This document shows, in pieces, positions 5,721 through 31,302 of a DNA stretch of 32,000 nt. The first letter of the stretch is position 1, and every line of letters starts with the position of its first letter. The stretch spans positions 13,141 to 45,140 of the forward strand of contig CAYJVY010000011.1 of NCBI GenBank assembly GCA_964373795.1. Reading direction: 5' to 3'. A program made the position numbers and the translations under genes. Under the pieces are notes generated by a model. That model saw nothing but the letters and a program-made list of their open reading frames with translations, was not told where the DNA came from and ran no database searches. This stretch comes from an uncultured archaeon (lineage in GTDB: Archaea; Iainarchaeota; Iainarchaeia; Iainarchaeales; DATDZZ01).

Positions 5721-5736
5721 CTCAGTAAAAGATCTT

Positions 5737-5802
5737 TCACGAACGAAGTGAGCATGCTCAGTCAAAGACTGTGCGCATACTCTTCGGACGTTACGGCGAT
5801 GT
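5737..5802 (+). ncRNA. GC-rich island B: candidate structured 5' leader or co-transcribed small RNA of tRNA-Cys
   Basis: About 65 nt of GC-rich sequence between the TATA-like box and tRNA position +1. It contains the perfect 12-nt palindrome TGAGCATGCTCA (5749-5760) and shares TCACG..AAC, GCTCAGTCAAAG and CTTCGGxCGTyAC with islands A and C. Confidence 0.3.
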
Positions 5803-5873
5803 GGTGGAATGGCAGATCGGCTATGCGCTCGCCTGCAGAGCGAGATAGGAGGGTTCAACCCCCTCTTCCACCT
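5803..5873 (+). tRNA. tRNA-Cys (GCA)
   Basis: Manual cloverleaf. Acceptor GGTGGAA/TTCCACC, D-arm GCAG-ATCGGCT-ATGC, anticodon arm CTCGC-CTGCAGA-GCGAG (anticodon GCA), T-arm GAGGG-TTCAACC-CCCTC, discriminator T. CCA is not encoded. Confidence 0.9.
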
Positions 5874-11247: not shown

Positions 11248-11290
11248 GAAAGATTTTTATTAAAGTAAAGCATTATTTTTTGAGATTGAA

Positions 11291-12046: not shown

Positions 12047-12756
12047 TGGCAGTAGAAGCATCTATTCCTGCATTAAGCACTGTAATAATTACTGCATTAA
12101 TTGATTCAGTTAATCCTTGTGCAATAGGAGTATTAATTTTACTTATTTCAACAGTTATTGCTACTTCTCAAACAAAAAAAAGAATGCTTTCACTTGGATT
12201 TGCATACATTGCAGCAGTATTCATTACTTATTTTTTAGCAGGAATTGGATTGCTATTCGTTTTTGCCTACATTCCTCAAACAATTGCAGAATACATTTCA
12301 ATTATTGTGGGAACATTAATTGTTTTCGCAGGCTTAATTGAATTAAAAGATTTTTACTGGTATGGACAAGGATTTTCGTTATCAATTCCTCCTGAAATGA
12401 GTAAAAAAATTTCAAATTATACAAAAAATTTAAGCATTCCAGGAATAATGTTTTTAGGAGCATTTGTTTCAGCAGTTGAATTGCCTTGCACTGGAGCTCC
12501 ATATCTAGCAATTTTATTAGTATTAAAACAAAGCTTTGATTTAACTGCTTTAGGATTACTAATCTTATATAATTTTATTTTTGTTTTACCATTAATAGTA
12601 ATACTTTTATTAGCAGCTTTAGGAATAAAGATAACAGAAATAAAGGCTTGGAAACATAGAAACAGGCCTTACATGAGATTATTTAGTGGAATGCTTTTAA
12701 TTGCATTAGGATGGCTATTAATTTTAATTGCAAACGGAACAATTAATTTCGGGTGA
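12046..12756 (+). CDS. CcdA/DsbD-family transmembrane thiol:disulfide electron transporter
   Basis: Six predicted TM segments, with the two signature cysteines in IDSVNPCAIGVL and VELPCTGAPYLA. Confidence 0.75.
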   Translation: MAVEASIPALSTVIITALIDSVNPCAIGVLILLISTVIATSQTKKRMLSLGFAYIAAVFITYFLAGIGLLFVFAYIPQTIAEYISIIVGTLIVFAGLIELKDFYWYGQGFSLSIPPEMSKKISNYTKNLSIPGIMFLGAFVSAVELPCTGAPYLAILLVLKQSFDLTALGLLILYNFIFVLPLIVILLLAALGIKITEIKAWKHRNRPYMRLFSGMLLIALGWLLILIANGTINFG

Positions 12757-12761
12757 AAAAA

Positions 12762-13034
12762 ATGAATTCAATAATTGTGAAAAGAAGAGGACATGAAGAA
12801 AAATTTGATGCAAAAAAATTATATGGAAGCGTTTACTGGGCATGTAAAAGCAGTCACTTACAAGAACAATTTTGTGAACAAACATCTGAAAAAGTTTTAA
12901 AAGCAGTAAAACAATGGTTAAAGAAAAGAAAAAAAGTTGACTCAAACCAAATCTTTAAATGCATTGTAAAAGAATTAAAAAAACACGATAAAGATGCTTC
13001 ATTCATGTATGAAACGCATAGAGATTTAAGTTAA
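12762..13034 (+). CDS. Stand-alone ATP-cone domain protein
   Basis: IVKRRGHEEKFDAKKLYGSVYWAC...SNQIFKCIVKELKKHDKDASFMYETHRD follows the ATP-cone consensus. The ATG at 12762 is preceded by GGTGA (12752-12756), so the listed GTG at 12753 is probably not the start. Confidence 0.65.
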   Translation: MNSIIVKRRGHEEKFDAKKLYGSVYWACKSSHLQEQFCEQTSEKVLKAVKQWLKKRKKVDSNQIFKCIVKELKKHDKDASFMYETHRDLS

Positions 13035-13117
13035 CATGCATTAAAATAAATTAGTTTGAAAAAGAAATATATTATTAATTGTTGCATTAACTAATTTTTT
13101 TAAGAGTTAAAAGAATT

Positions 13118-13232
13118 GGGCCTGTAGCTCAGTTGGTAGAGCACATGACAAATTAAATCATTCAATAATTAATGATTGGTTTGGGTGAAGCTCTTAACCA
13201 TGGGGTCAGGGGTTCGAATCCCCTCAGGCTCG
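13118..13232 (+). tRNA. tRNA-Lys (CUU) with a 42-nt intron
   Basis: Acceptor GGGCCTG/CAGGCTC, D-arm GCTC-AGTTGGTA-GAGC, T-arm AGGGG-TTCGAAT-CCCCT. Joining 13147 to 13190 gives anticodon stem CATGG/CCATG and loop CTCTTAA (U33, anticodon CTT, A37). Confidence 0.85.
13148..13189 (+). other. tRNA intron at the non-canonical position 30/31
   Basis: The intron ACAAATTAAATCATTCAATAATTAATGATTGGTTTGGGTGAA has an internal hairpin AATCATT/AATGATT. Its boundaries are inferred only from restoring the anticodon arm. Confidence 0.6.
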
Positions 13233-13243
13233 TTTCATTAACT

Positions 13244-14827
13244 CTACCCTGATTCAATAGAGAAAAGAATTGGTGGATCAATTTTTACTTCAGTTCTTGT
13301 TTTAGGGTCTTCAAAGGATACTTCAATCAAGCATTCAATTTTTTGGCTTGGCTCTGCTGCATCAGGAAAAGAAAAAGTCATTGGAACAGAAAACTTGCTA
13401 TTACTTGAACCCTTTCTCTTTAAATCAATTGGAAAAATGTTTGCAGTTTTTTGAGGAATATTAATAATTGAAGTACTCTCACAGCTATCTAATCCAAAAT
13501 CGTTAAGACTTCCTTGTTTTACTTGAAGGTCTACTTTTGAAACATCTAAATCTCCTTTGTTTTCCAAGTCAAGAGAAACTTGTTTTTTTTCAGGGTTTCC
13601 ACTTGAATCTCTTCTAAGCTTATAATTATTTTCCAAAGGCCTTAACAAAGCAGAAACCAGAATTTCAGCTTCTTTTAATTTTACTTCAAGTAAAAGTTTA
13701 TGCAAAACAGATTGATCTTTTTTCACAACAAGATATCCAGTTCCAAGAACTTGCCTTGCAGTTGCAGGAGGGGAAAACTTTAACAAGCCAATAAATTCAT
13801 TATTTTGCTTGTCAGCAGAAATATCAATAAAGCAATTCTTAATATTTTCACAACCAGTTAAAGAAAACCAATTCAAAAAATCGTCTTTACTGTTTTCACC
13901 TACATCAGCTAATTCAATGCTTATTTGAATTTTTTCAATTTTAATTGAACCCTTATTAGTTATCTTAATATCCTTAGTTAAATCTGCTCCAGCTTTTGCA
14001 TCCATGGAAAGAGTTCCAGTAGGATTAATACTTGTCTCAGGCTTTGGAAAAACTCTAAAAGAAAACTCTTTATTAGTTTTATCGCTTTTCAACAAACCTT
14101 TAATTAAAAACTGGCCTTTTAATTCATCGCCTTTAGATTTATCTTTAACTCTATAACTGTCTTTAACTTTTACTCTAAGCTTTAATTCATCTTCTCCATT
14201 AGGAGATAAAGGAAAAGTACTTGGAACAAATTCCGTTGACTCAAAAACGTCTTTAAACTCTTTTCCATCTAAATCAAAACTTAATTCAACTAATTTTTTT
14301 TGATCTTTATTCTTAATCCTAGTTAAAGCAAATTCTTTTTCCTCTCCAATAGATAAATCAGGAAAAGAAAAATCCAATAAATCTAAATCAAAATCTTTAG
14401 ACAAAGTAATATTAGAAGGGGAAACTCCTCCACGAGTTACAGTAATTTCTTGAGACAAAGCCTTGTGTTTTGGAATGGGATTAAACTCAATTGAATAAGT
14501 TCCCTCTCTAAGCTTTCCAGAAATTATTCCAGAACTAAACTCTAAAACCTTGCTTCCTTTAGAATCTAAAACACTTCCAGAAGCAGCTGAAATAACTTTG
14601 CTTTCAGTATCCTTAATTGAAACATTTACTTCAACAATGCCTCCAATAAAAAAATCGTAAACAAAAAACACCACTATTAAGAAAACAAGTAATGCAAGAA
14701 TTTTCTTCCAATGAGGAAGAATAGGGGAAAGCATTTCCTTCACTGAATCCAAAGGCCCTCCAGATGATTGTCCGCCAAACCCTCTAGGTTCAAATCCGCC
14801 TCCAGAAAACTCGTCAAAATTAGCCAT
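13244..14827 (-). CDS. Hypothetical membrane-anchored protein with a large extracytoplasmic beta-rich region
   Basis: 527-aa ORF with a Gly-rich N-terminus (FSGGGFEPRGFGGQSSGG), one TM segment (ILALLVFLIVVFFVYDFFIGG), then repetitive beta-strand-like sequence. No recognisable catalytic motif. Confidence 0.6.
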   Translation of the reverse strand: MANFDEFSGGGFEPRGFGGQSSGGPLDSVKEMLSPILPHWKKILALLVFLIVVFFVYDFFIGGIVEVNVSIKDTESKVISAASGSVLDSKGSKVLEFSSGIISGKLREGTYSIEFNPIPKHKALSQEITVTRGGVSPSNITLSKDFDLDLLDFSFPDLSIGEEKEFALTRIKNKDQKKLVELSFDLDGKEFKDVFESTEFVPSTFPLSPNGEDELKLRVKVKDSYRVKDKSKGDELKGQFLIKGLLKSDKTNKEFSFRVFPKPETSINPTGTLSMDAKAGADLTKDIKITNKGSIKIEKIQISIELADVGENSKDDFLNWFSLTGCENIKNCFIDISADKQNNEFIGLLKFSPPATARQVLGTGYLVVKKDQSVLHKLLLEVKLKEAEILVSALLRPLENNYKLRRDSSGNPEKKQVSLDLENKGDLDVSKVDLQVKQGSLNDFGLDSCESTSIINIPQKTANIFPIDLKRKGSSNSKFSVPMTFSFPDAAEPSQKIECLIEVSFEDPKTRTEVKIDPPILFSIESG

Positions 14828-14925
14828 TCAAAGCCTCAATAAATTTAATCAAATGATTTATATAATAAAAAACAAATATTTAATTCTTTTTACATTAAAT
14901 ACCTATAATAATTAAAGGAATTTAA

Positions 14926-15354
14926 GTGAAAAACACTAAATTAGATGAAAACGAGAAAGAATTAAAGTTGTTTTTGTTATTCGTATTAATTTTAACCATA
15001 CTTATTTTTGGATACATTTACTGGCTTCAATTAAACAAACAACCCGAAACATTTTCAGAAACCTATTTAGGAAAAATGGAAAAAGAAGCAAAAGTTAATA
15101 AAGAATTCAATGTACAATTTATTATTGAAAACAAAGAAAGAAAACCAATGAATTACAATTATTCAATTTCAATTGAAGAAAAAGAAATTGAAAAAAAAGT
15201 TTCACTACAAGAAAATGAAAAAAAAACAATTAATGAAAAAATTATTTTCACAAAAGCAAGCGAAGAAAAAAGAGTTTTAATTGAAGTAAAAAAAGATGAA
15301 AACAATTCCAAAGAATTAAGTTTATGGTTTTGGGTGAAAGTAAATGAAAATTAG
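14926..15354 (+). CDS. Hypothetical single-TM protein (loosely DUF1616-like C-terminal domain)
   Basis: GTG start after AAGGA, one TM segment, then FSETYLG...FNVQFIIENKERKPMNYNYSISIEE...LSLWFWVKV, which loosely resembles archaeal DUF1616 domains. Unverified. Confidence 0.5.
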   Translation: MKNTKLDENEKELKLFLLFVLILTILIFGYIYWLQLNKQPETFSETYLGKMEKEAKVNKEFNVQFIIENKERKPMNYNYSISIEEKEIEKKVSLQENEKKTINEKIIFTKASEEKRVLIEVKKDENNSKELSLWFWVKVNEN

Positions 15355-15766
15355 TTTTATTAGTTGCTCTGAACAAGAAATTGATTTCTTGCCAGAATTA
15401 GAAGAATTTTTAGTAAACGAAGTAATGGGTTTAGAAACAGAAACTTTCTACGTTCCAACAGTTTTAGATATTCCTTTACAAGCAAAACAAGTATCAAGCA
15501 ACTCAGACTTAGTTTTTACGTTATACTCATTTGAAAAAGAAGATAAAAGAATTTCACTTGTTTTGGAAAAACTTTTAAAAATCGAATTAGATTCAAATAC
15601 CAGAATAGTTAAAGCAATTGAAGAAACAGAAGAATCAGAAATTTTAACTGAAGAAGACGTTCAAAAAGAAAAAGAAAGACTAGTAAAAAAATGGGGAGAA
15701 ACAATAATTAATTTAATTCACTTTCCTGAAAAATTTAAACCAGGATTTGAAGAAACAGAAGAATAA
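15344..15766 (+). CDS. Hypothetical acidic protein
   Basis: ATG preceded by GGGTGA, overlapping the previous gene by 11 nt. There is a weak by-eye resemblance to the lumazine-synthase-like alpha/beta fold (VPTVLDIPLQAKQV). Not reliable. Confidence 0.5.
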   Translation: MKISFISCSEQEIDFLPELEEFLVNEVMGLETETFYVPTVLDIPLQAKQVSSNSDLVFTLYSFEKEDKRISLVLEKLLKIELDSNTRIVKAIEETEESEILTEEDVQKEKERLVKKWGETIINLIHFPEKFKPGFEETEE

Positions 15767-15768
15767 AA

Positions 15769-16428
15769 CTATTTTTTTCTTCCAACAATTAATGCATGAT
15801 CTTTTTCAAAAGGCTCTAAAAAAAGCACTTGCAAAACATTAAAGTCTTTTTTCAAGCTTTCCTCAACTTCTTTGAAAACCTTTTTAGGATTTGCAGCAAC
15901 ATCAATTGAACGAGCCTTTACAGCTAACAAGCCAATGCCATTTTTCTTTAAAAAGCATTCAGCATTCTTCAAAAAAATCTCGCTTTGATTTTTTTGAGAA
16001 ACATCTTGAAACAATACATCTACTTCTAAAACAAATTCTTTATACAATTCAGGATGATTGGCGGACTGCATTATTGGAACTAAATTTTTTCTTTTCTCGC
16101 AAAGCATTACAAATTTCCTCATTACTCGAGCAGAAATATCAACTCCAAAAACAACTCCCTTTAATCCAACAATATCCGAAATATGGGAAACAGTTGTTCC
16201 TTCAGCGCTACCCAAATATAACACTCTTGAACCATCATTAAATGGAAATGTTTTCAAACCCTTTTTAATTGCTGCTCCTAATTTAGATCTTTGAGGCTTC
16301 CACTCTCTATATTCAACTCCATTAAATTTGAACAAGTTTTCTCCATAAACTTTTTCTCCTGGAACAAGGTTTTTAGTTACAAGTTTATTTTTAAAAACAA
16401 AAAGTCCTGGAAAAATTTGTTTAAGCAT
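15769..16428 (-). CDS. flpA: Fibrillarin-like rRNA/tRNA 2'-O-methyltransferase
   Basis: YREWKPQRSKLGAAI, VLYLGSAEGTTVSHISDIVG, GVDISARVMR and DVSQKNQSEIFLKNA are all typical fibrillarin blocks. It lies immediately downstream of nop5. Start placed at ATG 16428. Confidence 0.9.
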   Translation of the reverse strand: MLKQIFPGLFVFKNKLVTKNLVPGEKVYGENLFKFNGVEYREWKPQRSKLGAAIKKGLKTFPFNDGSRVLYLGSAEGTTVSHISDIVGLKGVVFGVDISARVMRKFVMLCEKRKNLVPIMQSANHPELYKEFVLEVDVLFQDVSQKNQSEIFLKNAECFLKKNGIGLLAVKARSIDVAANPKKVFKEVEESLKKDFNVLQVLFLEPFEKDHALIVGRKK

Positions 16429-16439
16429 AAAAATCAAAA

Positions 16440-17249
16440 TTAATTTCTTAAACCTTTAACTTGTTCTAAACGTTTTAGAAGACTTTTCTCTAAATCTTTT
16501 GCAATAAAGGCTTTACCAAAAAAATCTTCTTTAACTGCAATTGCAAGTTTTGCAGCTAAAGCCCTGGCTATTTTACCTTTTTGTTTTGGCTTTAATTCTT
16601 TAAGCATTGGATGCTGAAACAAATATCCATGCTTTGGAGGATTTGAATGAGTTTTTAAATGCTGAAACAAGGACTTTTCTGCTCCAAGAACTTGAAGAGT
16701 TGAAGAAGGCAAAAAAGCAAGTTTTTCTAGCGAACCCGAATGAGCTAAAAATCTTGCTCCAAGCAATCCTCCACATAAATAAGAAAAATTTGGAGCAACT
16801 TCTTTCATTCCTTGTTCAATGAATTCAACTAATTCTTTTCTAAATTTTTTTAAATTCAAAGCATTTCTTGCAAGAGACTGAATTTCAATTAAATCTTTTT
16901 CTGAAAGATTTGCTCCCATGGAAGTATTTACCTTGCTTAAAATTTCTTCAATCTTTTTCTCGTTTTTATAAAATGCTATTAAATATTTTTTAGAAAAATT
17001 TTTTCTTTCTCCAAGCAAAACACAATTCAAGTAAACTTCGTTGTCATTTAAAAGCAATTGAAGTTCAGGAAAATGCATTCCAAACCATTCAATACAGTGC
17101 TCAGATAATTCATTAAAAGATTCATCTAATTCATCAATAACTGAAACAGCTTTAACTAAATGCAAGTCTCTAGAAGAATACTTTTCTTTAACTTGTTTTT
17201 TTGTTTCAGCAATGAGTTTTTCACGAATTTCATTAAATGAGTTAGCCAT
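16440..17249 (-). CDS. nop5: Nop5 (Nop56/58) C/D-box sRNP protein, short form
   Basis: NOP-domain blocks EWFGMHFPEL, SMGANLSEKDL, APNFSYLCGGLLGARFLAHSGSLEKLAFLPSSTLQVLGAEKSLFQHLK, PPKHGYLFQHP and KGKIARALAAKLAIAVKED. At only 269 aa, the sequence starts directly in the helical region. Confidence 0.85.
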   Translation of the reverse strand: MANSFNEIREKLIAETKKQVKEKYSSRDLHLVKAVSVIDELDESFNELSEHCIEWFGMHFPELQLLLNDNEVYLNCVLLGERKNFSKKYLIAFYKNEKKIEEILSKVNTSMGANLSEKDLIEIQSLARNALNLKKFRKELVEFIEQGMKEVAPNFSYLCGGLLGARFLAHSGSLEKLAFLPSSTLQVLGAEKSLFQHLKTHSNPPKHGYLFQHPMLKELKPKQKGKIARALAAKLAIAVKEDFFGKAFIAKDLEKSLLKRLEQVKGLRN

Positions 17250-17301
17250 AATAAATAGCTAAATAGAAAGCAATTTAAAAACTATTTAATTGAATTAAGT
17301 C

Positions 17302-18786
<1,485 letters not shown>

Positions 18787-18834
18787 TCCAATAAACTCAT
18801 TAAATCCAGGAAAAAGCCAAGAAAAACAGACTTA

Positions 18835-18876
18835 GACAATTGTCAAAAAAAACAATATATTTAAATGACAATTGAC
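18835..18876. promoter_or_regulatory. Two GACAATTG(T/A)C sites flanking a TATA-like box (candidate operator of the downstream XRE regulator)
   Basis: GACAATTGTC at 18835-18844 is a perfect 10-bp palindrome and GACAATTGAC at 18867-18876 is a near copy. AATATATTTA (about 18853-18863) lies between them, about 60-100 nt upstream of the 18934 start. Confidence 0.4.
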
Positions 18877-18933
18877 GAAAAGGATTTTTAAACAGTTTTA
18901 ACATTAATTAAATAAATTTAAGGCAGTGAAAAA

Positions 18934-19638
18934 ATGGAAAAACTAAAAACCTCTATTGCAGGAGAAATAACTCTTTCAAAAGATCCAGGAGGATCAATGA
19001 AGAAATGGAGAGAAATCTTTGGGATTTCTCAAACAGAGTTAGCAGACTATTTAAATGTTTCAAGTTCAACTATTTCAGATTATGAAGGAGGAAGAAGAAA
19101 ATCTCCTGGAATAACAGTTATTGCAAGACTAGTTGATGCATTACTTTTCCTTGATAAAAGACATGGTGGAAAAATAACAAAACAATTAATGAAAGACTTT
19201 GAGCCAGAACAAGAAATATTTGATACACACGAATTTTTTTCAGCATTAAAAGCCAAAAACTTTGCAGAAAAAATTGATGGAACATGCGTTGCCTGTCCAT
19301 CAAAATTAAAAGAAACAAATATTTATGGATACACAATAATTGATTCACTTAAAGTAATATTAGATGTTCCAGTACACGAATACATGCAATTATATGGAAA
19401 AACCCCTGAAAGAGCATTAATCTTCACTCAAGTTGAAAGCGGTAGAAGCCCTTTAATTGCAGTAAAAATTGGCAGGTTTTCAACTGACATGAAACCATCA
19501 ATAATAGTCTTACATGGAATAACAAAAGATGTAGATAAGGTTGCAATTAAAATAGCTGAATCAGAAAAAATTCCGTTACTTATTACAAGTAAACCAATTG
19601 AAGAAATAAAAAAATCTTTAACTGATTTTGAATCATAG
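18934..19638 (+). CDS. XRE-family HTH transcriptional regulator with a conserved archaeal C-terminal domain
   Basis: WREIFGISQTELADYLNVSSSTISDYEGGRRKSPG is a Cro/C1-type HTH. The roughly 150-aa C-terminal domain is not identified. Confidence 0.65.
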   Translation: MEKLKTSIAGEITLSKDPGGSMKKWREIFGISQTELADYLNVSSSTISDYEGGRRKSPGITVIARLVDALLFLDKRHGGKITKQLMKDFEPEQEIFDTHEFFSALKAKNFAEKIDGTCVACPSKLKETNIYGYTIIDSLKVILDVPVHEYMQLYGKTPERALIFTQVESGRSPLIAVKIGRFSTDMKPSIIVLHGITKDVDKVAIKIAESEKIPLLITSKPIEEIKKSLTDFES

Positions 19639-20352
19639 TTATTCTTGGATTCTAACACAATAAGTATTCCTATATTTTCTTGATCCATCATCTGTCTCTC
19701 CAATTAATTTATTAGAATAAACATATTTCACTTTATACTCTTTAGCAAGTTTTACACTTACATGCTTTGAAGCCTTATTTGAACCAATTAATACATCAAA
19801 ACCATTAGGAACTTTTTTAAGTCCAACAATTTTTGCAAGAGAATCTTTTTCCTCTTCAAATGCAAGAAACTCTTTCAATTTAAGTAATGCTTCTTCTAAC
19901 TCTAAAAGAGAAGTTTTCTTTGTTCCACGAATTTGAATAATACCTTCATGATAATTTGATGAAACCTTCATGCAAGCATCACAAATAAGAGATTGAGGTT
20001 TAAGAATTGACTCTCTTTCTAAAAACAATTTACTTCCTTCTAATTCACCTTCAATCTTTATTTTAGCAATTGACTTGCCTTTATCAAAAGGAATTAATTT
20101 AACTTTTACAACAAAATTCTCTAAATCTTTTACTTTAAGTTTTTCGTTAACTATTTCAACAAGGTTTTCAGGAGATTGTTCAACCCAATTAAATCTAATT
20201 CTAATCTGATTACATCTCTTACAATGATCTATCACAATCTCTTTATCTATTTCAACTAAATTAGGATGATCCTCTAAAAAACAGTTTAAACAAAAATTCT
20301 TAAAAAACTGATTTGATTCCTTTCCACATTTAGGGCAAAAACGTTTATTCAT
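19639..20352 (-). CDS. NMD3-family protein (archaeal ribosome biogenesis factor homolog)
   Basis: N-terminal cysteine clusters FCPKCGKE..FCLNCF..HCKRCNQ and a later ICDACMK, followed by a beta-rich domain. The arrangement is typical of archaeal NMD3 homologs. Confidence 0.55.
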   Translation of the reverse strand: MNKRFCPKCGKESNQFFKNFCLNCFLEDHPNLVEIDKEIVIDHCKRCNQIRIRFNWVEQSPENLVEIVNEKLKVKDLENFVVKVKLIPFDKGKSIAKIKIEGELEGSKLFLERESILKPQSLICDACMKVSSNYHEGIIQIRGTKKTSLLELEEALLKLKEFLAFEEEKDSLAKIVGLKKVPNGFDVLIGSNKASKHVSVKLAKEYKVKYVYSNKLIGETDDGSRKYRNTYCVRIQE

Positions 20353-20388
20353 TTAATAATACCCATTACAATTAATTTAAAAAATATT

Positions 20389-21207
20389 TTAAACATGCTT
20401 TAATTTTTTCTTCTTCTCATAAGCTAAGTAAAAAACTGGATTCAAAACATAAGAATAAGTTGCAAGAACAGCAATTAAAAACCTCAACAAGATAAACAAA
20501 AATAGGAATTCAAGTTTGTCAGCAAAAAAAGACAAAATCCAACTAGAAATTGAAACAAGAAAAGGAAAAACAGATGCCTTTGAAATATCAATTGAATTTT
20601 TTTTAGTTAAAGAAAAAGTCCGAAAAATTACTTGCAAAAAGTTTTGCTTCTCTAAAACAGATACTGGGAAAAGCAAAAAAAACAAAGCATTTGCAATGAA
20701 AACCATTAACAAAAAACCAATCAAAGAAACTGCAATCAAAAAAATGTTCTTGGAAGGCAAAAACAAATTTAAAGCCAAGCTAAAAGGAATTGTAAGAATT
20801 GAAAAAAAAATCAATTCAATAAAAATTGCAGGAATAATTACAAAAAATTTATTTAAAGCTTCTTTAAATCCTTTAATAAAAGAAATATTTTTCCTTGCAA
20901 TAAAGTCCCTAACTAAAACAGAATACATTGCATTAATCAATGAATCCAAAATCAACACTAAAAGCGAGAAAACAAAAATTATGGATGATTGAATTAACAA
21001 TGAAAAAGCTTTAACAATTCTTTCCTCTCTAGAAAGAGAAAATAATTCAAGAGACTGAACTATTAATGGAGCAGTTAAAAGCATTAAAACTCCGTACAAA
21101 GCTGCAATAAAAAATTTTGGTAAAAAAAGCTTTGGAATTTTTACAAGAGTCTTAAAGGCATCAATCAAAACAATAAAAAACTTTGACATAAATTCACCAA
21201 CTGCCAA
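20389..21207 (-). CDS. Hypothetical polytopic membrane protein
   Basis: 272-aa ORF with at least 6 hydrophobic segments. The antisense 158-aa ORF is K-rich low complexity and was rejected. Confidence 0.55.
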   Translation of the reverse strand: MAVGEFMSKFFIVLIDAFKTLVKIPKLFLPKFFIAALYGVLMLLTAPLIVQSLELFSLSREERIVKAFSLLIQSSIIFVFSLLVLILDSLINAMYSVLVRDFIARKNISFIKGFKEALNKFFVIIPAIFIELIFFSILTIPFSLALNLFLPSKNIFLIAVSLIGFLLMVFIANALFFLLFPVSVLEKQNFLQVIFRTFSLTKKNSIDISKASVFPFLVSISSWILSFFADKLEFLFLFILLRFLIAVLATYSYVLNPVFYLAYEKKKKLKHV

Positions 21208-21243
21208 AGAAAATTTAATTCAAATTTAAAGTAAAAAAAACCA

Positions 21244-22524
21244 TTAAAGTAATTTAACTATTTCCCCTACTTTTGGAGCAAAAGCTTCAAATCCTTTTTC
21301 TTTTAACTCTGTTTGATAATCAGAAATTACTTTTGAATCTCCATGCACACAAATTACTTTTTCAGGAGAAAGAGTTTCAACTGTTTTAATTAACTCTTCA
21401 TGTCCTGCATGAGCAGAAAAATCTGCAAAATGAACTTTTGCTTCAACCTTTTCCAAGCTTCCTTCAATAGGAATTTTTCCAGTATCCTTTAAAATTCTTC
21501 CAGGAGTTTCCTCTACTTGATAACCAGTTAAAAAAATAGTTGAATTCTTGTCTTTAATAAACTTAGGCAAGTAATGATAGATTGGACCGCCCATTAACAT
21601 TCCAGCAGTTGTAACAATTGCACAAGGTTCTTTGAAAACTCTTTTCCTAACTTTTTTTTCTTCAACCCAGTGAGCCCAACTCAAAGACTTTTTCAATAAC
21701 TTAAAATCTCTAAAATAATCAGGATAATCTAAAAAAATTCTTGCAGCCTTCATTCCCATTCCATCAAAAAAAACTTGGCCATTCAATTTTTTTTCAAACA
21801 AAATTTGAATTACTTCTTGACTTCTACCAATTGCAAAAGAAGGAATCAAAGCCCACCCACCTTTATCAATTGTTTCTTGAACTTTCTCAAAAAAAACTTT
21901 TTCAATTTCCTTTCTATCTTCATGCTCTTTATTTCCATAAGTGGTTTCCATAATCAAGTAATCACAATTCTTAATTCCTTTTAAATCAGCTCCATTAAAG
22001 CTACGAGTTTGCTCTAACTTAAAGTCTCCTGTATAAACAAGACTTTTATTAGAGTAATTTAATTTAACCATTGAAGAGCCAAGAATATGCCCTGCATCAA
22101 ATAACTCCATTAAAACATTTTCAGTTATCTGTAAAGGCATTCTATAACGCGTTGGAAAAGAAAACTTTGTAACTCTTTCAATCTCTGATTTCTCAAATTT
22201 TGGAGCCACTCCCTCAAAATCAGCAATCTTTAAAGTATCAAACCAAAGCAACCTACTCAAATCCAAAGTAGGAGGAGTCAAATAAATCAAACAATTATTG
22301 TAATCAAATAAATGAGGAAGATTTCCTGAATGATCAAAATGAGCATGAGAAACTATTGCAGCAGACAAGTTTTCTTGAATCTCTCCAGGATACATGGGGC
22401 CTTGAGGAGTAAGCTTTACTCCGTGATCTAACAAAATTTTATCCTTTGCATCAACTACAAAACTACTCCTACCAACCTCTTGAGCAGCTCCATAAAACTT
22501 AACACTTAAACCCATTTCACTCAC
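21244..22524 (-). CDS. Beta-CASP / metallo-beta-lactamase-fold ribonuclease (aCPSF2-like, no KH domains)
   Basis: MBL motifs LDHGV, VSHAHFDHSGNLP and FDAGHILGS, plus beta-CASP/C-terminal motifs (ETTYG, FSAHAGHEEL, VCVHGD). Confidence 0.8.
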   Translation of the reverse strand: MSEMGLSVKFYGAAQEVGRSSFVVDAKDKILLDHGVKLTPQGPMYPGEIQENLSAAIVSHAHFDHSGNLPHLFDYNNCLIYLTPPTLDLSRLLWFDTLKIADFEGVAPKFEKSEIERVTKFSFPTRYRMPLQITENVLMELFDAGHILGSSMVKLNYSNKSLVYTGDFKLEQTRSFNGADLKGIKNCDYLIMETTYGNKEHEDRKEIEKVFFEKVQETIDKGGWALIPSFAIGRSQEVIQILFEKKLNGQVFFDGMGMKAARIFLDYPDYFRDFKLLKKSLSWAHWVEEKKVRKRVFKEPCAIVTTAGMLMGGPIYHYLPKFIKDKNSTIFLTGYQVEETPGRILKDTGKIPIEGSLEKVEAKVHFADFSAHAGHEELIKTVETLSPEKVICVHGDSKVISDYQTELKEKGFEAFAPKVGEIVKLL

Positions 22525-22650
22525 ACAAACAATTTAATAAGTAATAAAAGATACAAGAATATAAATAGATGATGGTTAAACAAAACAAAAAAACATTCAA
22601 AGAACTTGAAAAAAATTTAATAATTGAAGAATTCAAAAAGGGCATCATTC

Positions 22651-22720
22651 AATTCAAGTACCTGGTGCCTAAAATTCACTGCATTTTTCCCTCTGAAAAA
22701 ATGAAAACCTGGTGCCTAAA
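22651..22720 (+). repeat. Dispersed repeat, copy 1 (two ACCTGGTGCCTAAA units around a 33-nt spacer)
   Basis: 22659-22720 is identical to 28939-29000 (62/62), and similarity extends 8 nt further upstream with 2 mismatches. The internal 14-mer occurs at 22660-22673 and 22707-22720. Confidence 0.85.
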
Positions 22721-22765
22721 TTTGAGTTCCAAAACCTTTTATTTTTTTGTGAACGAAATTAAGTT

Positions 22766-24761: not shown

Positions 24762-24868
24762 TAAAAAGTCCCTGAACATAATAGTGAAAACCAGTATAAA
24801 AATATTTGGCTTCAAAAAATTAATAAAATAAAACACATTTAAAGAAAAAAAATGAAGTGAATTCAAAA

Positions 24869-27613
24869 ATGAAATTAGAAGAAATAGATACAGCTCTAGT
24901 AATGGTTTTCAAGAAAAAACTAAAAAAATTACAAGAATTCAAAGGACAAGGAACTCAACTAATTTCCCTTTACCTTCCAGAAGACGTTGACAGAAGCTCT
25001 GTAATGAATCAATTAACTGAAGAAATCAGTCAAAGCTCTAATATTAAAAGCCCTCAAACAAGAAAAAACGTTCAAGGAGCTCTAAGAAAAATAATTAATT
25101 TCTTAAAACACATTAACTTTAAACTACCAAAACACGGATTAGTCGTGTTTGCAGGAAACATTGCAGAAGCCGGCAGATCAGACATAATTCTGCAAACCAT
25201 TAACCCAATAAAAGACTTAAGAACAAAACTTTACTGGTGTGATTCAGAATTTCATTTAGCTCCATTAAAAGAAATGATTACTCCAAGCGATGTATATGCA
25301 TTAATTACAATGGATAAAAGAGAAGCAACAATTGCAAGCCTCATAGGAAAAAAATATGAAATAGTTGGACACTACACTTCAAATGTTGCTGGAAAAACAA
25401 GGGCAGGCGGACAATGCCTTTCTCCAGATTCACTAGTTCAATTAAGTAATGGAGAAATACTTCAAATAAAAAACTTACACAACCCATTAACTCTTTCAAG
25501 CTTTGATTTTTCAGAAAATAAATTAAGTCATTCAAAAATTGTTGACAAATGGGAGAACAAAAAACAATTGATTAAAATAATTACAAAAAAACCTCGCACA
25601 GAATTAAATTGTTCTCCAGACCATTTATTTTATGTATTTGAAGACAATAAAGTAATTGAAAAATCAGCAAAAGAACTAAAATTTAATAACAAGTTATTAA
25701 TGCCTGAAAAAATCAAAACAGAGGCAGAAAAAATTTTATTAAAATCAAAGCAATACTTCAATAGTTTCATTTTAACTAGCAAAGGAAGAAAAAAATTAAT
25801 AAATGCAAGGAAAATAAATAACTTAAGCCAAAAACAACTTGCAAACAAAACACAACTAACTCAAACAGCTATATCTTCTATTGAGTTAGGTAAAAGAAAT
25901 TCTAGAAAAAATGTTATAAAAAAGATTTGCAATTCACTTGAAATAAATTTTTTAAATTTTATAAAGCAAAACTGTAAAGAGAATTCAACCCTTAATCTAC
26001 CAAAAGCTATTGATGAAAAACTAGCTAAAATAGTTGGATACTTTTTAGGAGATGGAAACTTTGAAAAAGAAAGAATTAATTTTTCCGAGCAATCAAAAGA
26101 AGTTATTAAAAAATATGCCGAATTAATTAAAAAATATTTTAACTGTAATACATCTTTAAAATTTAGAAAAAATAAAGGATATTATTCTTTAAGAGTCTAT
26201 GGTAAGCCAATAGTTGAATTACTAAAAAATGAATTTCCAGAACTAAAAAAAAGTAAAGATAGCTTAATTCCATCAAAAATATTGAAATGCAATAATACAA
26301 TACTTGCAAATTTTTTGAATGGATTATTTGATGCAGAAGGATTTATTTCAAAAAAAAGAATTGGTTTTGCAGCAAATAACAAGTTATTAGTTCAACAAAT
26401 TCAATTAGCTTTACTTAGGTTTGGAATAATTGCTTCATTACACGAATATAATAACAGAGCCAATAAATACAGCAAAAACCATCGATTCTCTATTGACATA
26501 GCTGAAAAAGAATCAATTAAAATCTTTAAGCAAAATATTGGTTTTACAAATTCACAAAAACAATTCAATCTAGAAAAAGCAATTAAAAGCAAATCAAATA
26601 AAAGCCTCGTTAGACAAATAGTTTTTAATGGAAGCAATATAAGAAAAATAATTGAAAAACATGGATATAATTTACAGTTATTTCCAAAAGTAACAAACTT
26701 TTTTAGAAATGAAAGAAATATGGGTAAAGAGATTTTTAAAAACTCAATATTAAATTATGTCAAAGACAAAAAATTATTTAATGAATTAAAAAAAATATAT
26801 CAATATCCACTTATTCCAGTAAAAGTACATTCAATTGAAAAAACAAATATTCAAACAAAAATGGTTGACATTTCAGTTCAAAATCAAAGCTTTGTTTCAA
26901 ATGGATTATTAGTGCATAATAGCTCTCAACGTTTTGAGCGTTTAAGAGAGGAAGCCGCACACGACTTTTATAAAAGGGTTTCAGAAAGAATGAATGAAAT
27001 ATTTGTTCCAGTTGAAGAAAAACTAAAAGGAGCAATAATTGGAGGCCCTGGAATGACTAAAAATCATTTCCTTGAAAGAGAGTTACTAGATCATAGAATA
27101 AAGAAAAAAATAATTGGAATATTAGATGCATCTTACACTGATGAATCAGGGATAAGAGAATTAATTCAAAAATCAGAAGAACTATTAAGAGACACTGAAT
27201 TAATGAAAGAAAGAACAATAATAAATAAATTCTTGGAAGAAATAGCAAAAAACGGTTTAGCAGCTTATGGACAAAAAGAAGTAGAAGAAGCATTATTAAT
27301 AGGAAAAGTTTCAACACTAGTTTTGTCAGAAGCATTAACTTGGAGTGTATTCAGAGTTGAATGCGAGTCATGCAATAAAATTGAAGACATAATTGTAAAA
27401 GAAATTGAAAAATTTGAATCAAATAAAATTAAATGTTCTTCTTGTAGTTCAAGTCAAATCGAAGTATTAGAAGAAATTGATTACGTTGACTTCATGCTTG
27501 AAAAAGCTCAAAAGATTAGTGCAGAAACAATAATTGTTTCAACTGACACAGATGAAGGAGAACAATTCTTTAAAGGATTTGGCGGCATAGGGGCAATCCT
27601 TCGATACAAATAA
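24869..27613 (+). CDS. prf1: Peptide chain release factor aRF1, intein-containing
   Basis: NIKS motif (SSNIKSPQTRKNV), GGQ motif (KTRAGGQ) separated from SSQRFERLREEAAHDFYKRV by an intein, and a C-terminal domain with a CxxC..CxxC knuckle. The extein is about 412 aa, normal for aRF1. ATG 24869 is preferred over GTG 24857. Confidence 0.9.
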   Translation: MKLEEIDTALVMVFKKKLKKLQEFKGQGTQLISLYLPEDVDRSSVMNQLTEEISQSSNIKSPQTRKNVQGALRKIINFLKHINFKLPKHGLVVFAGNIAEAGRSDIILQTINPIKDLRTKLYWCDSEFHLAPLKEMITPSDVYALITMDKREATIASLIGKKYEIVGHYTSNVAGKTRAGGQCLSPDSLVQLSNGEILQIKNLHNPLTLSSFDFSENKLSHSKIVDKWENKKQLIKIITKKPRTELNCSPDHLFYVFEDNKVIEKSAKELKFNNKLLMPEKIKTEAEKILLKSKQYFNSFILTSKGRKKLINARKINNLSQKQLANKTQLTQTAISSIELGKRNSRKNVIKKICNSLEINFLNFIKQNCKENSTLNLPKAIDEKLAKIVGYFLGDGNFEKERINFSEQSKEVIKKYAELIKKYFNCNTSLKFRKNKGYYSLRVYGKPIVELLKNEFPELKKSKDSLIPSKILKCNNTILANFLNGLFDAEGFISKKRIGFAANNKLLVQQIQLALLRFGIIASLHEYNNRANKYSKNHRFSIDIAEKESIKIFKQNIGFTNSQKQFNLEKAIKSKSNKSLVRQIVFNGSNIRKIIEKHGYNLQLFPKVTNFFRNERNMGKEIFKNSILNYVKDKKLFNELKKIYQYPLIPVKVHSIEKTNIQTKMVDISVQNQSFVSNGLLVHNSSQRFERLREEAAHDFYKRVSERMNEIFVPVEEKLKGAIIGGPGMTKNHFLERELLDHRIKKKIIGILDASYTDESGIRELIQKSEELLRDTELMKERTIINKFLEEIAKNGLAAYGQKEVEEALLIGKVSTLVLSEALTWSVFRVECESCNKIEDIIVKEIEKFESNKIKCSSCSSSQIEVLEEIDYVDFMLEKAQKISAETIIVSTDTDEGEQFFKGFGGIGAILRYK
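25415..26920 (+). mobile_element. Intein (502 aa) with LAGLIDADG endonuclease and an XRE-type HTH, inserted after GGQ of aRF1
   Basis: Begins CLSPDSLVQL, block B NCSPDHLFYV, HTH NLSQKQLANKTQLTQTAISSIELGKRN, LAGLIDADG motifs IVGYFLGDGNF and FLNGLFDAEGFI, and ends NGLLVHN followed by Ser+1. Confidence 0.85.
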
Positions 27614-27666: not shown

Positions 27667-28923
27667 ATGCAAGAAAATTTTTTCATTAAAACTCCAGGCA
27701 TTGGAGGAAAAATTAAACGAAGATATTCTGATTTCATAGTAGAAGAAATAACTGCAAACCACGAATGCAAAGTAGAATTTTTTCTTGCAAGCGAAGAAGA
27801 AAAACAAAAATTAAGAGAAAAAATTTCTTGGCCTGCAAAGCCTGAAAATGAAAGAGAAATTAATCAATTAATTCTGGAAATGGAGAAATTCAATTTAGAT
27901 TTAATTCTTGCATTAAAAATAATTGCTCGCTTTATAGGAGTAAGCCAAAAAAGAATTGGATATGCAGGAATTAAAGACAAACGCGGAATAACAAGTCAAT
28001 TAATTTCTATTTGGAATCCAGATTACGAAAAACTAAAACAATTCAAGTCAAGAAGCATTTTCCTCAAACCATTGCAGTGGAGTAATAAAAGAATTGAATT
28101 AGGAGAATTAAATGCAAATAAATTTGAAATAACTATTAGAGAAATTGATTTAGAAAAAAAAGAATTAGAGAAAAGAATTAATGAATGCTTTAATGAATTA
28201 CAAAAAGGGATTCCAAATTATTTCGGCGAACAAAGATTTGGAGGAATAAGGCAAGTAACTCATCTAGTTGGAAAAGAATTCATTAAAGGCAATTTTGAAC
28301 AAGCAATTAAAATGTATTTAACTTTTTCAGTTCCAAAAGAAGAAGAACAAGTAAGAAACGCAAGAAAAAATTTATTTGAATCAAATGATTTTTCTAAAGC
28401 ATTAAAAGAATTCCCTCAAAAATACAGATTTGAAAGAGCAATATTAAATCATTTAACTAAATACCCGAAAGACTTTGTAGGAGCATTCAGAGCTTTGCCA
28501 AAAAAATTAAGATATTTATTTACTCATGCATTTCAAAGCCATTTATTTAACAAAATAATTAAAGAAAGAATTAAACAAGGAATTTCATTAAACGCAATTG
28601 AAGGAGACATTTTAGAAGAAGGCATTCCAACTGCTCCATTAATTGGATTTGATTCAGAATTTGCAGAAGGAGTAATTGGAGAAATAGAAAAAAAAGTTTT
28701 ACAAGAAGAAGAAATTGAATTAAATCAATTCAAAATTAATTCAATGAATGAAATGAGTTCAAAAGGCAGTAGAAAAAAAATTGTTTTAATTCCAGAAAAC
28801 TTAAAATTAATTAACATAGAAGAAGATGAATTTAATGCAGGAAAATTAAAAGCAATTATTTCATTCACTTTAAGCAAAGGAAACTATGCAACAACAGTTT
28901 TACAAGAAATAATGAAAAATTAA
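27667..28923 (+). CDS. truD: tRNA pseudouridine synthase TruD/Pus7 family
   Basis: GIGGKIKRRYSDFIVEEI, IGYAGIKDKRGITSQ (catalytic Asp block), NYFGEQRFG and the overall length. Confidence 0.85.
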   Translation: MQENFFIKTPGIGGKIKRRYSDFIVEEITANHECKVEFFLASEEEKQKLREKISWPAKPENEREINQLILEMEKFNLDLILALKIIARFIGVSQKRIGYAGIKDKRGITSQLISIWNPDYEKLKQFKSRSIFLKPLQWSNKRIELGELNANKFEITIREIDLEKKELEKRINECFNELQKGIPNYFGEQRFGGIRQVTHLVGKEFIKGNFEQAIKMYLTFSVPKEEEQVRNARKNLFESNDFSKALKEFPQKYRFERAILNHLTKYPKDFVGAFRALPKKLRYLFTHAFQSHLFNKIIKERIKQGISLNAIEGDILEEGIPTAPLIGFDSEFAEGVIGEIEKKVLQEEEIELNQFKINSMNEMSSKGSRKKIVLIPENLKLINIEEDEFNAGKLKAIISFTLSKGNYATTVLQEIMKN

Positions 28924-28930
28924 TTTTTAA

Positions 28931-29000
28931 AATTCAGTTACCTGGTGCCTAAAATTCACTGCATTTTTCCCTCTGAAAAAATGAAAACCTGGTGCCTAAA
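28931..29000 (+). repeat. Dispersed repeat, copy 2
   Basis: See copy 1. The 14-mers are at 28940-28953 and 28987-29000. It starts 8 nt after the truD stop and ends 72 nt before the next start codon. Confidence 0.85.
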
Positions 29001-29072
29001 AAGCAAAGCCAAAACACAAATGAAAGATTAATAAATAAATAGAAATTTTATGATATTATTTTAAGTGATTCA

Positions 29073-30029: not shown

Positions 30030-30030
30030 C

Positions 30031-30179
30031 GCACGCCGTTCAGCCGGCGAGGCTGAGTCAAAAGCCGGCGAGGCTGAGTCAAAAGCCGGCGAAGCTGATG
30101 CAGAGCAGCCGGCGAGGCTGAGTGCTCACGTGAACATCGGCTTAATCGGCCGAACGCCTCGCATCCGCCGGGCGTGACT
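30031..30179. repeat. GC-rich island C with 21-nt tandem repeats
   Basis: AGCCGGCGAGGCTGAGTCAAA occurs at 30042-30062 and 30063-30083 (identical), with degenerate copies starting at 30084 and 30107. The 3' part carries blocks TCACG, TGAAC, TCCGCCGG and GCGTGACT, shared with island A. Confidence 0.8.
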
Positions 30180-30183
30180 GCAA

Positions 30184-31302
30184 CTAGTGAAACTTTATTA
30201 CATAATGACTTCTTCCTAAAACAATGCTGAACAACATGCTTGCAATTGTTGGAATAACTAGTCTCACTACATCAAATGCAATTAATACTGCTCCAATTTC
30301 ACTTAAAGAAAGCATTGTTTTTCCAGCAATTAATGGAAATGAAAGAAAACTATATCCAACTAATTCAACTAATCCAATTCCTCTTGGAAGAAAAGGAGTT
30401 TTTTCAAGCAAAGCAATTAAAACAAATAACACTAAAATAAATTCTAACTGCAAATTAATTCCTAAAGAATAAAAAGTAAAAGTTAAAGCTAAAAACTCTA
30501 AAGCAAATGAAAGAAAGGAAAGAAAAAACACTGCAACAAAATGTCTTTTCTTTACTCTATGCAAGTAAAAAGTGTATTTTTCAAAAAACAATCCTATTTT
30601 GAATATCAATCCTTCAGGTTTTCCAAAGCCTTTAAAAAAATTTGCAATCCTTAAACCAATTGATTTATTTAAAGGCAAGAAAAACATTAACGCAGAAAGC
30701 AATACAACCATAAACCCACTTAACAATCCAAGCAATAAAATTAATTCAATTCCAGTGAAAACAAGTTTAATTAAATAAAAGTATAAAACAAGTGAAGCAA
30801 AAATTGACAGCAATAAAAACTTTGTTCCCTTGTTTACAAGAGAAGCTGCAACAGATTCATTATAACTAATTCCAAAATATTTCTTCAACCTAGTTGACCT
30901 TAAATACTCTGCTCCAAGTTGAATTGGAGTTAAAGACCCAAAAAAAGAAGAAAAACCCACTGCCAACAAGTTCCTATACCTAATAATGTTATGCTTTTTA
31001 ATCAAGTAACCCCATGAAAAAACCCACACAAATATCTCTAAAATAAATAAAATGCTTGCCAAGGCAAAAAAAAACAAATTAATTGAAGTTAAAGAATTAA
31101 AAGCCTCTGTAAGGGATCCAATTACAACAAATAATACAGTTAAAACAATTAGTGAAAGAATTGCTCCTTTTAAATGCTTGTTCACTTTCAAAACCTTGAA
31201 GAAATTAATTAATTTAGATTCAATATTTAAATTTAAGGATTTAAGAATTAGAATCCTTCTTTGAAATTTTTCCAAGTTTTCCTGTTCTAAAAAGCCTGTC
31301 AA
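30184..31302 (-). CDS. Polytopic membrane protein (UPF0104 / lysylphosphatidylglycerol-synthase-TM-like flippase-like family)
   Basis: 372 aa with about 8 TM segments and a basic N-terminal region before TM1. This architecture is typical of the family often found beside glycosyltransferases. The start is uncertain because of a 62-nt overlap with the upstream gene. Confidence 0.45.
   Translation of the reverse strand: MTGFLEQENLEKFQRRILILKSLNLNIESKLINFFKVLKVNKHLKGAILSLIVLTVLFVVIGSLTEAFNSLTSINLFFFALASILFILEIFVWVFSWGYLIKKHNIIRYRNLLAVGFSSFFGSLTPIQLGAEYLRSTRLKKYFGISYNESVAASLVNKGTKFLLLSIFASLVLYFYLIKLVFTGIELILLLGLLSGFMVVLLSALMFFLPLNKSIGLRIANFFKGFGKPEGLIFKIGLFFEKYTFYLHRVKKRHFVAVFFLSFLSFALEFLALTFTFYSLGINLQLEFILVLFVLIALLEKTPFLPRGIGLVELVGYSFLSFPLIAGKTMLSLSEIGAVLIAFDVVRLVIPTIASMLFSIVLGRSHYVIKFH

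Follow-up and report, generated by a model that had tools for sequence, protein, structure and literature searches.

The 32,000-nucleotide stretch of DNA that we analyzed (the window) contains two copies of an intergenic repeat that is real and belongs to no described family; it is of the kind of short, lineage-specific intergenic repeats or cis-elements. Each copy consists of a 14-nucleotide box, a 33-nucleotide spacer and the same box again, with a period of 47 nucleotides. Comparison with related genomes indicates that the core of the box is conserved in one other lineage, where a pair of boxes encloses a structured, RNA-like element. Judging from these sequences, the box pair looks functional, and we tentatively propose that its role is that of an RNA-level module.

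Positions 22659-22720 of the window are the same as positions 28939-29000 over all 62 nucleotides, and pairwise comparison could not extend the exact match. If flanking bases are included, the two copies agree at 68 of 70 positions (starting from 22651 and 28931) and at 76 of 85 positions (through 22735 and 29015); outside the repeat, the similarity is at background (14/30 upstream and 6/30 downstream). The original prediction had described a 62-bp identity on the same strand at a distance of 6.3 kb, near-perfect over 70 bp and with rapidly diverging flanks, and had divided each copy into two 14-mers with a 33-nt spacer and a 47-nt period. The coordinates confirm all of this. The 14-mer, ACCTGGTGCCTAAA, occurs four times in the 32-kb window, always on the plus strand (Table 1), while 0.10 occurrences would be expected by chance, and none of 100 shuffled sequences reached four. 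No further sites with up to two mismatches were found in the window. The spacer of copy 1 ends in TGAAA, which lengthens its second box to an 18-mer that is shared with the relative L007 (see below). The motif CCAAAAC lies at an equal offset in both copies, which by itself could be due to chance (rough P ~0.05). Separately, GGGCATCA at positions 22640-22647, 12 nt 5' of copy 1, matches the box core AGGCACCA in inverted orientation at 6 of 8 positions and could form pairs with the box at the RNA level; copy 2 has no such sequence on its 5' side.

Table 1. Coordinates, within the window, of the parts of the two repeat copies and of the neighboring GC-rich element
Feature	Position	Strand	Remarks
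Copy 1, left flank AATTCAAGT	22651..22659	+	7/9 in common with copy 2; 9-bp arm with 22720-22728 in plus-strand RNA
Copy 1, box 1 ACCTGGTGCCTAAA	22660..22673	+	exact 14-mer
Copy 1, spacer	22674..22706	+	A/T-rich, 33 nt; small hairpin of 22684-22689 with 22695-22700
Copy 1, box 2	22707..22720	+	46 nt 5' of the Dph2 start codon (22766)
Copy 1, right flank	22720..22735	+	arm ATTTGAGTT (pairs with 22651-22659), then CCAAAAC
Copy 2, left flank AATTCAGTT	28931..28939	+	starts 8 nt past the TruD stop codon (28921-28923)
Copy 2, box 1	28940..28953	+	exact 14-mer
Copy 2, spacer	28954..28986	+	33 nt; same sequence as the copy 1 spacer
Copy 2, box 2	28987..29000	+	73 nt 5' of the start codon (29073) of GT4 (glycosyltransferase family 4)
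Copy 2, CCAAAAC	29009..29015	+	common to copy 1; past an unrelated 8-nt patch
GC-rich element	30030..30185	-	67% GC; takes up the whole intergenic region of the convergent GT4 and LPG-synthase genes; context, outside the repeat

A true genomic repeat causes a break at k-1 (30 nt) in an assembly graph with k=31. Two Logan unitigs, L004 (run ERR4904391, with an identical Dph2) and L005 (run ERR3478686, with an identical GT4), begin at exactly 30 nt to the left of the site of right-hand divergence between the copies. The Logan unitig with TruD (L062, from ERR3478686) stops exactly 30 nt past the point where the copies converge on the left. Because the unitigs break at exactly k-1 in independent runs, the repeat is not an assembly artefact. 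The breaks imply at least two copies, and two were counted in the 32-kb window of the 45-kb contig.

The host is a Diapherotrites-like DPANN archaeon. The best named relative of its Dph2 is from "Candidatus Diapherotrites archaeon" (66% identity), and the window, which is about 30% GC, contains an intron-containing tRNA (13118-13232), genes for the archaeal proteins fibrillarin, Nop5, NMD3, a beta-CASP nuclease, Dph2, UMP kinase, TruD and a GT4 glycosyltransferase, and a gene for an LPG-synthase-like membrane protein. Two regulators are encoded in the window: a TrmB protein (1407-2174) and an HTH_3 protein (18934-19638). The aRF1 and PEP synthase/PPDK genes contain one LAGLIDADG intein each. 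(The aRF1 intein, 24857-27613, is at the GGQ region, has an extra HTH_3 domain and is conserved in L007 and L045-L047; the PPDK intein, 7183-11247, is absent from L007 and L059.) At 5736-5802, directly 5' of tRNA-Cys (5803-5873) and downstream of the strong TATA-like sequence AAATTTATATAA, is a GC-rich segment of about 60 nt that includes GUGAGCAUGCUCAGUCAAAG, a sequence similar to motifs found in the family of GC-rich elements described below; this segment may be a co-transcribed small RNA or a leader.

Both copies of the repeat are intergenic and lie between housekeeping genes. Copy 1 is in the 241 nt that separate Dph2 from the divergently oriented beta-CASP gene on the minus strand. Dph2, UMP kinase, aRF1 and TruD occupy the 6.3 kb from one copy to the other, and since this is a housekeeping block that is syntenic in relatives, the copies are not the ends of an integrated element. 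We also rejected an att-bounded integrated element between them for want of mobile-element genes there. When the 30 ORFs of the window were scanned against Pfam, no cas, integrase, transposase or Orc1/Cdc6 genes were found.

The intergenic regions that hold the two copies are either compact in relatives or differ there in their arrangement. In L045-L047, TruD and GT4 are separated by just 4 nt and GT4 overlaps the LPG-synthase gene. In the window, the spacer between TruD and GT4 that holds copy 2 is 149 nt, and the compact arrangement of the relatives implies that this spacer and the GC-rich element are additions in the window's lineage. Similarly, about 11 kb (11248-22524) separates PPDK from Dph2 in the window; the two genes are adjacent or nearly so in L007 and in the more distant relative L059, where the interval is contiguous. 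Copy 1 is at the right edge of this 11-kb stretch, at a synteny break. (The stretch contains the intron-containing tRNA, fibrillarin-Nop5, a class II aminoacyl-tRNA synthetase, NMD3 and the beta-CASP nuclease.)

We scanned the Dph2 loci of relatives for the 14-mer, allowing up to three mismatches, and found a pair of boxes in one lineage, which is represented by two ENA assemblies (L007 and L008) and by the GTDB genome "archaeon isolate SMAG_U8205" (L030). The Dph2 of this lineage is 53% identical to that of the window. In L007, the boxes ACCTGGTGCCTAAC and GCCTGGTGCCTAAC are on one strand, 138 nt apart (8646-8659 and 8784-8797), and a GC-rich segment of 124 nt fills the interval between them exactly, in a genome that is 34% GC. 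The box-bracketed unit folds better than shuffled sequences (z = -2.63), its minimum-free-energy structure pairs the two boxes with each other, and T6 follows directly after it. The cargo has no match in Rfam. The 18-mer TGAAAACCTGGTGCCTAA is present exactly in L007 box 1 and in box 2 of both window copies, and it is the sole non-coding exact match of at least 18 nt between the window and L007; the others are in syntenic orthologous coding sequence. The TGAAA-extended box is thus first in L007 and second in the window. At position 14, the four window boxes have A and the two L007 boxes have C. Relative to Dph2, the box pair is oriented alike in the window and in L007. In both genomes the pair is upstream of Dph2, within the PPDK-Dph2 interval; a gene on the opposite strand puts 1.2 kb between the pair and Dph2 in L007.

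The Dph2 loci of four other relatives (L006, L010, L058 and L059-61), the closest relative among them, yielded no box at up to three mismatches, and neither did the GT4 loci of relatives (L044-L049). The box is therefore conserved but narrow and patchy in its distribution. It had been argued at the outset that a repeat confined to these two places and absent from all relatives would suggest a chance recent duplication. The outcome is split: the 62-nt unit itself was found nowhere else, but the 14-mer core and five flanking bases recur as a pair in L007/L008/L030. Because the paired core brackets a structured, RNA-like element there, a conserved cis-element or small RNA is favored over a chance duplication. 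A tiny mobile unit, the other option that had been offered, is somewhat less likely but would fit the compact or rearranged loci of the relatives.

L007 has another layout of repeat, small hairpin and repeat. Just 5' of its tRNA-Cys (3536-3606), the region 3396-3535 contains two direct copies of the 27-nt repeat TTGATCAAACTTTTCTTAAAAGTTTGC, with an 8-bp hairpin, and a degenerate third copy abuts the tRNA. The copies are split by GC-rich hairpin segments of 32 and 35 nt, the second of which begins with GCGGGG, as the tRNA does. These may be repeated promoter or leader units or partial duplications of the tRNA.

The cargo of L007 belongs to a dispersed family of GC-rich hairpin elements. The window has a member 1 kb downstream of copy 2 (30030-30185), which contains 3.8 tandem units of the 21-nt sequence AGCCGGCGAGGCTGAGTCAAA. 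Its minus-strand end has the hairpin CGCCG-GCUGAA-CGGCG, a 9-nt tail (GUGCGUUAGA) and U7, and it has no match in Rfam. The L007 cargo (8660-8783) is homologous to the minus strand of this element, with a best match of 25 nt at 92%. The closest relative, L044 (GCA_030650135.1), has three smaller members (520-575, 1590-1640 and 1680-1730) just downstream of same-strand genes (LPG-synthase and GT4). They begin with TTTTGTCAGGGT(T/G)CCG(A/T)AGG(A/T)ACCCTAC and continue with a second hairpin and a T-rich tail; the stems of the second hairpin are CGCCG/CGGCG, CGAGG/CCTCG and TGCGG/CCGCA, which are compensatory changes. The L044 elements could be terminators, 3' UTR elements or small RNAs.

Across the family, the architecture is hairpin 1, UACUCAG, hairpin 2 (CGCCG GCUGRA CGGCG), a short tail and a U-run. 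Hairpin 2 has compensatory changes in three of its five pairs, and 91% of cells are paired, as compared to 26-49% if the partners are slid. The U-run and the location downstream of same-strand genes tell which strand of the family is sense, and on that strand the boxes have the sequence CCTGGTGCCTAA. Boxes are present in the L007 member alone; the four other members do without them, so the boxes are not required by the GC-rich RNA family. In L007, box 2 occupies the position of the family's tail, between hairpin 2 and the T-run, and the boxes appear to be built into the transcription unit of the GC-rich member.

In the window, neither copy folds better than dinucleotide-shuffled sequences on either strand (z = -0.62, +0.27, +0.73 and +0.94). 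The original prediction had drawn attention to an A/T hairpin in the spacer and to the near-palindrome ACCTGGT. The hairpin does exist (UUUUUC with GAAAAA; Table 1), but neither feature has statistical weight. In all of the minimum-free-energy folds that we computed, box is paired with box, via GGUGCC/GGUGCC. This segment is self-complementary only with G.U pairs (two of them), so the boxes can pair only as plus-strand RNA. Self-complementarity over six bases has a chance expectation of about 5%. The geometry of the pairing is two-fold symmetric: a 3x3 loop (CCU/UAA), 6 bp and another 3x3 loop (UAA/CCU). In copy 1, furthermore, the 9 nt before box 1 (AAUUCAAGU) pair fully with the 9 nt after box 2 (AUUUGAGUU), with two G.U pairs. 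(By null simulation, P ~0.003; at the DNA level, 7/9 pair.) The flanks of copy 2 form 3 bp only.

Searches of known families and of large sequence collections turned up no relatives of the full unit. At the gathering score, Rfam identifies only two tRNAs in the window, and in a search to E = 10 the best E value over the repeat was 8, which agrees with the earlier statement that it fits no known family. Searches to E = 10 likewise yielded nothing for the L007 cargo or for the GC-rich element of the window. ARAGORN found no tRNA or tRNA-like gene at the repeat. The exact box pair with a gap of 20-50 nt had no matches in 185,579 GTDB species genomes; in IMG/VR, neither the box pair nor the spacer had any. 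In JGI metagenomes, the box pair matched just three contigs (L001-L003; Ga0268261 and Ga0209755), which are tandem satellites with units of 27 and 57 nt. These satellites are probably eukaryotic and unrelated to the archaeal element, with the 14-mer there by chance. A scan of the GTDB species genomes with a 17-mer gave 33 matches, or about the chance expectation, and the pair was found only in L030; we judged that a single match from Woesearchaeota (L033) lies within coding DNA. When IMG/VR was scanned with a 16-mer, the matches were to one further family and, on the opposite strand, to the anticodon arm of a phage tRNA-Leu(UAG); both are due to chance. In the tRNA-Leu(UAG) sequences (L051, L053, L054, L056 and L057), the reverse complement of the box, UUUAGGC-ACCAG, corresponds to the anticodon loop and the 3' stem; since the window element lacks a 5' stem and a T arm to go with them, we take this correspondence to be a coincidence. 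BLAST of the repeat against phages and plasmids found nothing, and neither did a scan of viral contigs for the Dph2 protein. Among the collections searched, the 62-nt unit is seen only in this organism.

We also considered and rejected several known kinds of element. C/D box sRNAs have a C box (RUGAUGA), a D box (CUGA) and 12-nt guides; on reading the repeat, we found one CUGA and a weak AAUGAAA, with no C box or conserved D box on either strand. For a tRNA-derived att site, the minus strand does have GGCACCA, like the 3' end of a tRNA, but there is no fitting acceptor strand, T arm or tRNA in the window. As for a small ORF, the products from the two copies diverge, and a conserved ORF is unlikely because a period of 47 nt, which cannot be divided by three, puts the two boxes out of frame with each other. 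Replication origin boxes were rejected on the direct orientation of the repeats and the lack of an Orc1/Cdc6 gene in the window. A target for the homing endonucleases of the inteins was rejected because the repeat has no likeness to the aRF1 extein junction (translation read by eye; aRF1 only). Finally, the template and variable repeats of a diversity-generating retroelement (DGR) do not fit, given that the two copies do not differ and that we saw no reverse transcriptase.

Our tentative proposal is that the repeat might be an RNA module of the plus strand, in which a small cassette is closed by the two boxes. The conserved pair of boxes (core CCUGGUGCCUAA) would bracket a short cargo that is read on the plus strand. 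The boxes would pair through GGUGCC, with its two G.U pairs, and thereby close the cargo within the symmetric helix and its 3x3 loops. In the relative, the cargo would be a structured RNA of 124 nt that ends in U6; in the window, it would be a minimal A/U hairpin of 33 nt, with the module present in two identical copies, one after TruD and before GT4 and the other before Dph2. The box pair could be a boundary, docking or processing signal for a sequence-specific factor, which would probably be dimeric, and it could serve to define or stabilize the ends of a small transcript or of a segment of a 3' or 5' UTR. The transcription of the module, the recognizing factor and any processing are what we infer; what the sequences show is the repeat, a box that is conserved in two lineages, an RNA-like element that the boxes bracket exactly, and a potential for pairing that is limited to one strand.

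We prefer to read the box pair at the RNA level because the sole informative homologue brackets a clearly RNA-like unit in the sense orientation, because box 2 of L007 is set between the last hairpin of that unit and its terminator, and because the pairings work only in plus-strand RNA. The box was kept where neutral DNA was not, given that TGAAAACCTGGTGCCTAA is the only non-coding match of its length to L007, and it exactly brackets a well-folding, T6-ended segment in all three genomes of that lineage. The compensatory changes in hairpin 2 of the cargo family, the agreement between the sense strands of family and boxes, the box-box pairing in every minimum-free-energy fold and the equal orientation of the box pairs to Dph2 in both lineages also favor the RNA module, as does the dependence of both the box pairing and the copy 1 arms on G.U pairs. 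On the other side, both window copies fold no better than shuffles, copy 2 does not have the flanking arms, and no promoter is obvious within the repeated unit. The four members of the GC-rich family besides the L007 cargo manage without boxes, the order of the extended and plain boxes is reversed between L007 and the window, the six-base self-complementarity of the box has a chance expectation of about 5%, and the helix-loop geometry differs from the bulge-helix-bulge motif.

An alternative that we hold to be only slightly less probable is that the repeat is an insertion scar or a miniature mobile unit. The boxes would then be a target-site duplication of 13-15 bp, left by staggered-cut integration into a preferred box; the insert would be 33 bp in the window and the 124-bp GC-rich element in the relative, and the 62-70-nt product would later have been copied elsewhere. 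To our knowledge, the only archaeal enzyme that makes 14-15-bp duplications is the casposase/Cas1-type integrase. The sharp edges of the direct repeats and their near-equal lengths (14-15 nt in the window and 13 nt in L007) fit this scenario, and the A or C at position 14 is what local duplication would give. The cargoes are unrelated in length and sequence, and the L007 cargo comes from a dispersed family that is found at different loci in different genomes. It also makes sense of the additions relative to L045-L047 (copy 2 and the GC-rich element), of the synteny breakpoints (with PPDK-Dph2 contiguous in L059) and of the patchy spread, with no box in six other loci of relatives. Target-site duplications of 14-15 bp are the hallmark of casposases, and casposase can integrate short duplexes as well (PMC5137440). 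Yet no relative has a single "empty" box, the window encodes no cas1, integrase or transposase, the inserts have no common terminal sequences, and the other members of the GC-rich family have no flanking duplication. In L007, box 2 is at the family's own tail position and looks integrated into the unit rather than flanking it. An insertion also leaves the extra shared TGAAA unexplained and demands a second mechanism for the second window copy.

Alternatively, the boxes might be a pair of DNA operators, bound by a regulator or roadblock, that act on the Dph2 and GT4 promoters and, in the relative, on a small-RNA promoter. We think this unlikely. The box is a GC-rich island in A/T-rich intergenic DNA that bears promoters, and an A/T-rich, TATA-like tract directly precedes the TGAAAA-box at L007 box 1 and at window box 2, a position that an archaeal repressor would occupy. 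The TrmB and HTH_3 regulators are nearby, and the spacer has phased T5 and A6 tracts. But unlike a typical regulon motif, all copies are exact: there are no degenerate sites in 32 kb, and the lone match with up to three mismatches is in a coding region. Nor is the box palindromic, the spacing varies (47 versus 138 bp), the distances to the start codons of Dph2 and GT4 differ by 27 nt, L007 box 2 is at an RNA 3' end and far from promoters, and the perfectly conserved 33-nt spacer is unaccounted for. Less probable still is that some 70 nt of intergenic DNA were duplicated recently and neutrally and have no function themselves. Such a duplication would suit the two visible copies, which are 100% identical over 62 nt and lose their similarity abruptly, as well as the insignificant fold and the absence of the unit from the collections searched. 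However, the internal doubling of the 14-mer would need its own explanation, and the box and five flanking bases form a same-strand pair again in a lineage whose Dph2 is only 53% identical. It is because the non-coding 18-mer is conserved across lineages and recurs in this paired form that a meaningless duplication is disfavored. Lastly, we reject a degenerate mini-CRISPR array, of which there is hardly any prospect. Direct repeats around 33 nt, a typical spacer length, do recall a repeat-spacer-repeat unit, but CRISPR repeats are about 23 nt or longer, the extended flanks of the two boxes are dissimilar (3/12 and 5/12, by eye), the same "spacer" is at two loci, that of the relative is 124 nt, and the window has no cas genes or leader. 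The original prediction had dismissed CRISPR as well, and the 14-nt repeat, identical spacers and lack of cas genes in the window uphold this.

It is quite doubtful that the repeat will prove to be either a casposase-like duplication around a single insert or a new RNA bracketing or processing signal, but each would have consequences. If the box is the preferred target of an integrase that makes 14-bp staggered cuts, then the window unit (box - 33 bp - box) would have arisen naturally in a DPANN archaeon as the single-spacer product of a casposase-like integration, and would be a living example of the proposed first step from the target duplication of a casposon to the CRISPR repeat-spacer unit; integration duplications would thus bear on the origin of CRISPR repeats. 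If the RNA reading is true, the box pairs would be a new sequence-specific bracketing or processing signal, read by a dimeric nuclease or ligase, and as boundary signals they would give archaea a new way to define small RNAs. If neither holds, this is a lineage-specific repeat of local interest only. That a box of 12-14 bases persists across lineages whose proteins share only about half of their residues points strongly to a system of sequence-specific recognition. The boxes always come as same-strand pairs around a variable cargo, and such a system could serve RNA boundaries, integration or regulation. We know of no description of a box-pair recognition system of this sort; as far as we know, almost no non-coding elements have been described from the tiny and poorly understood genomes of DPANN archaea.

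Of the known systems, CRISPR mini-arrays and solitary repeat units share the layout of repeat, 33 nt and repeat on one strand, but their repeats are about 23-50 nt rather than 14 nt, and they would not be expected to have an identical "spacer" at both loci or an interval of 124 nt in the relative. MITE or REP-like repeats are likewise short, non-coding, multi-copy, intergenic, hairpin-forming, lineage-restricted and found at synteny breakpoints. In contrast, the ends of the window unit are direct rather than inverted, neither copy is surrounded by a target-site duplication, and two copies were seen; the 9-bp arms, which are present in copy 1 only, depend on G.U pairs. In the bulge-helix-bulge stems of rRNA, tRNA introns and circular sRNAs, both sides of the RNA can pair, as they can here, and the two-fold symmetric structure would suit a dimeric enzyme. 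The box pairing is a 6-bp helix with 3x3 internal loops, however, whereas the bulge-helix-bulge has 3-nt bulges that are 4 bp apart; no register of the box-box pairing gives one, and the flanks in the window are direct repeats instead of being complementary. Archaeal operators beside a TATA box also have a conserved box of 12-14 bp, paired and directly downstream of an A/T-rich, TATA-like tract, but the boxes described here are exact and non-palindromic, their spacing is very variable, and one of them is at the 3' end of an RNA. The products of casposons and Cas1 differ from the repeat in that there is no casposon or cas1 in the window, the inserts are 33 and 124 bp and not kilobases, no empty site was found, and both loci hold the same product. 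The L007 insert lacks terminal inverted repeats, and the ends of the 33-nt insert match only as TTCA/TGAA. What the repeat does have in common with these products is an archaeal host, an insert flanked by direct repeats of 13-15 bp, a target that was apparently reused in two lineages and, in one case, an insert of the size of a CRISPR spacer; the direct repeats in the window, at 14-15 nt, are as long as the 14-15-bp target-site duplications of casposons.
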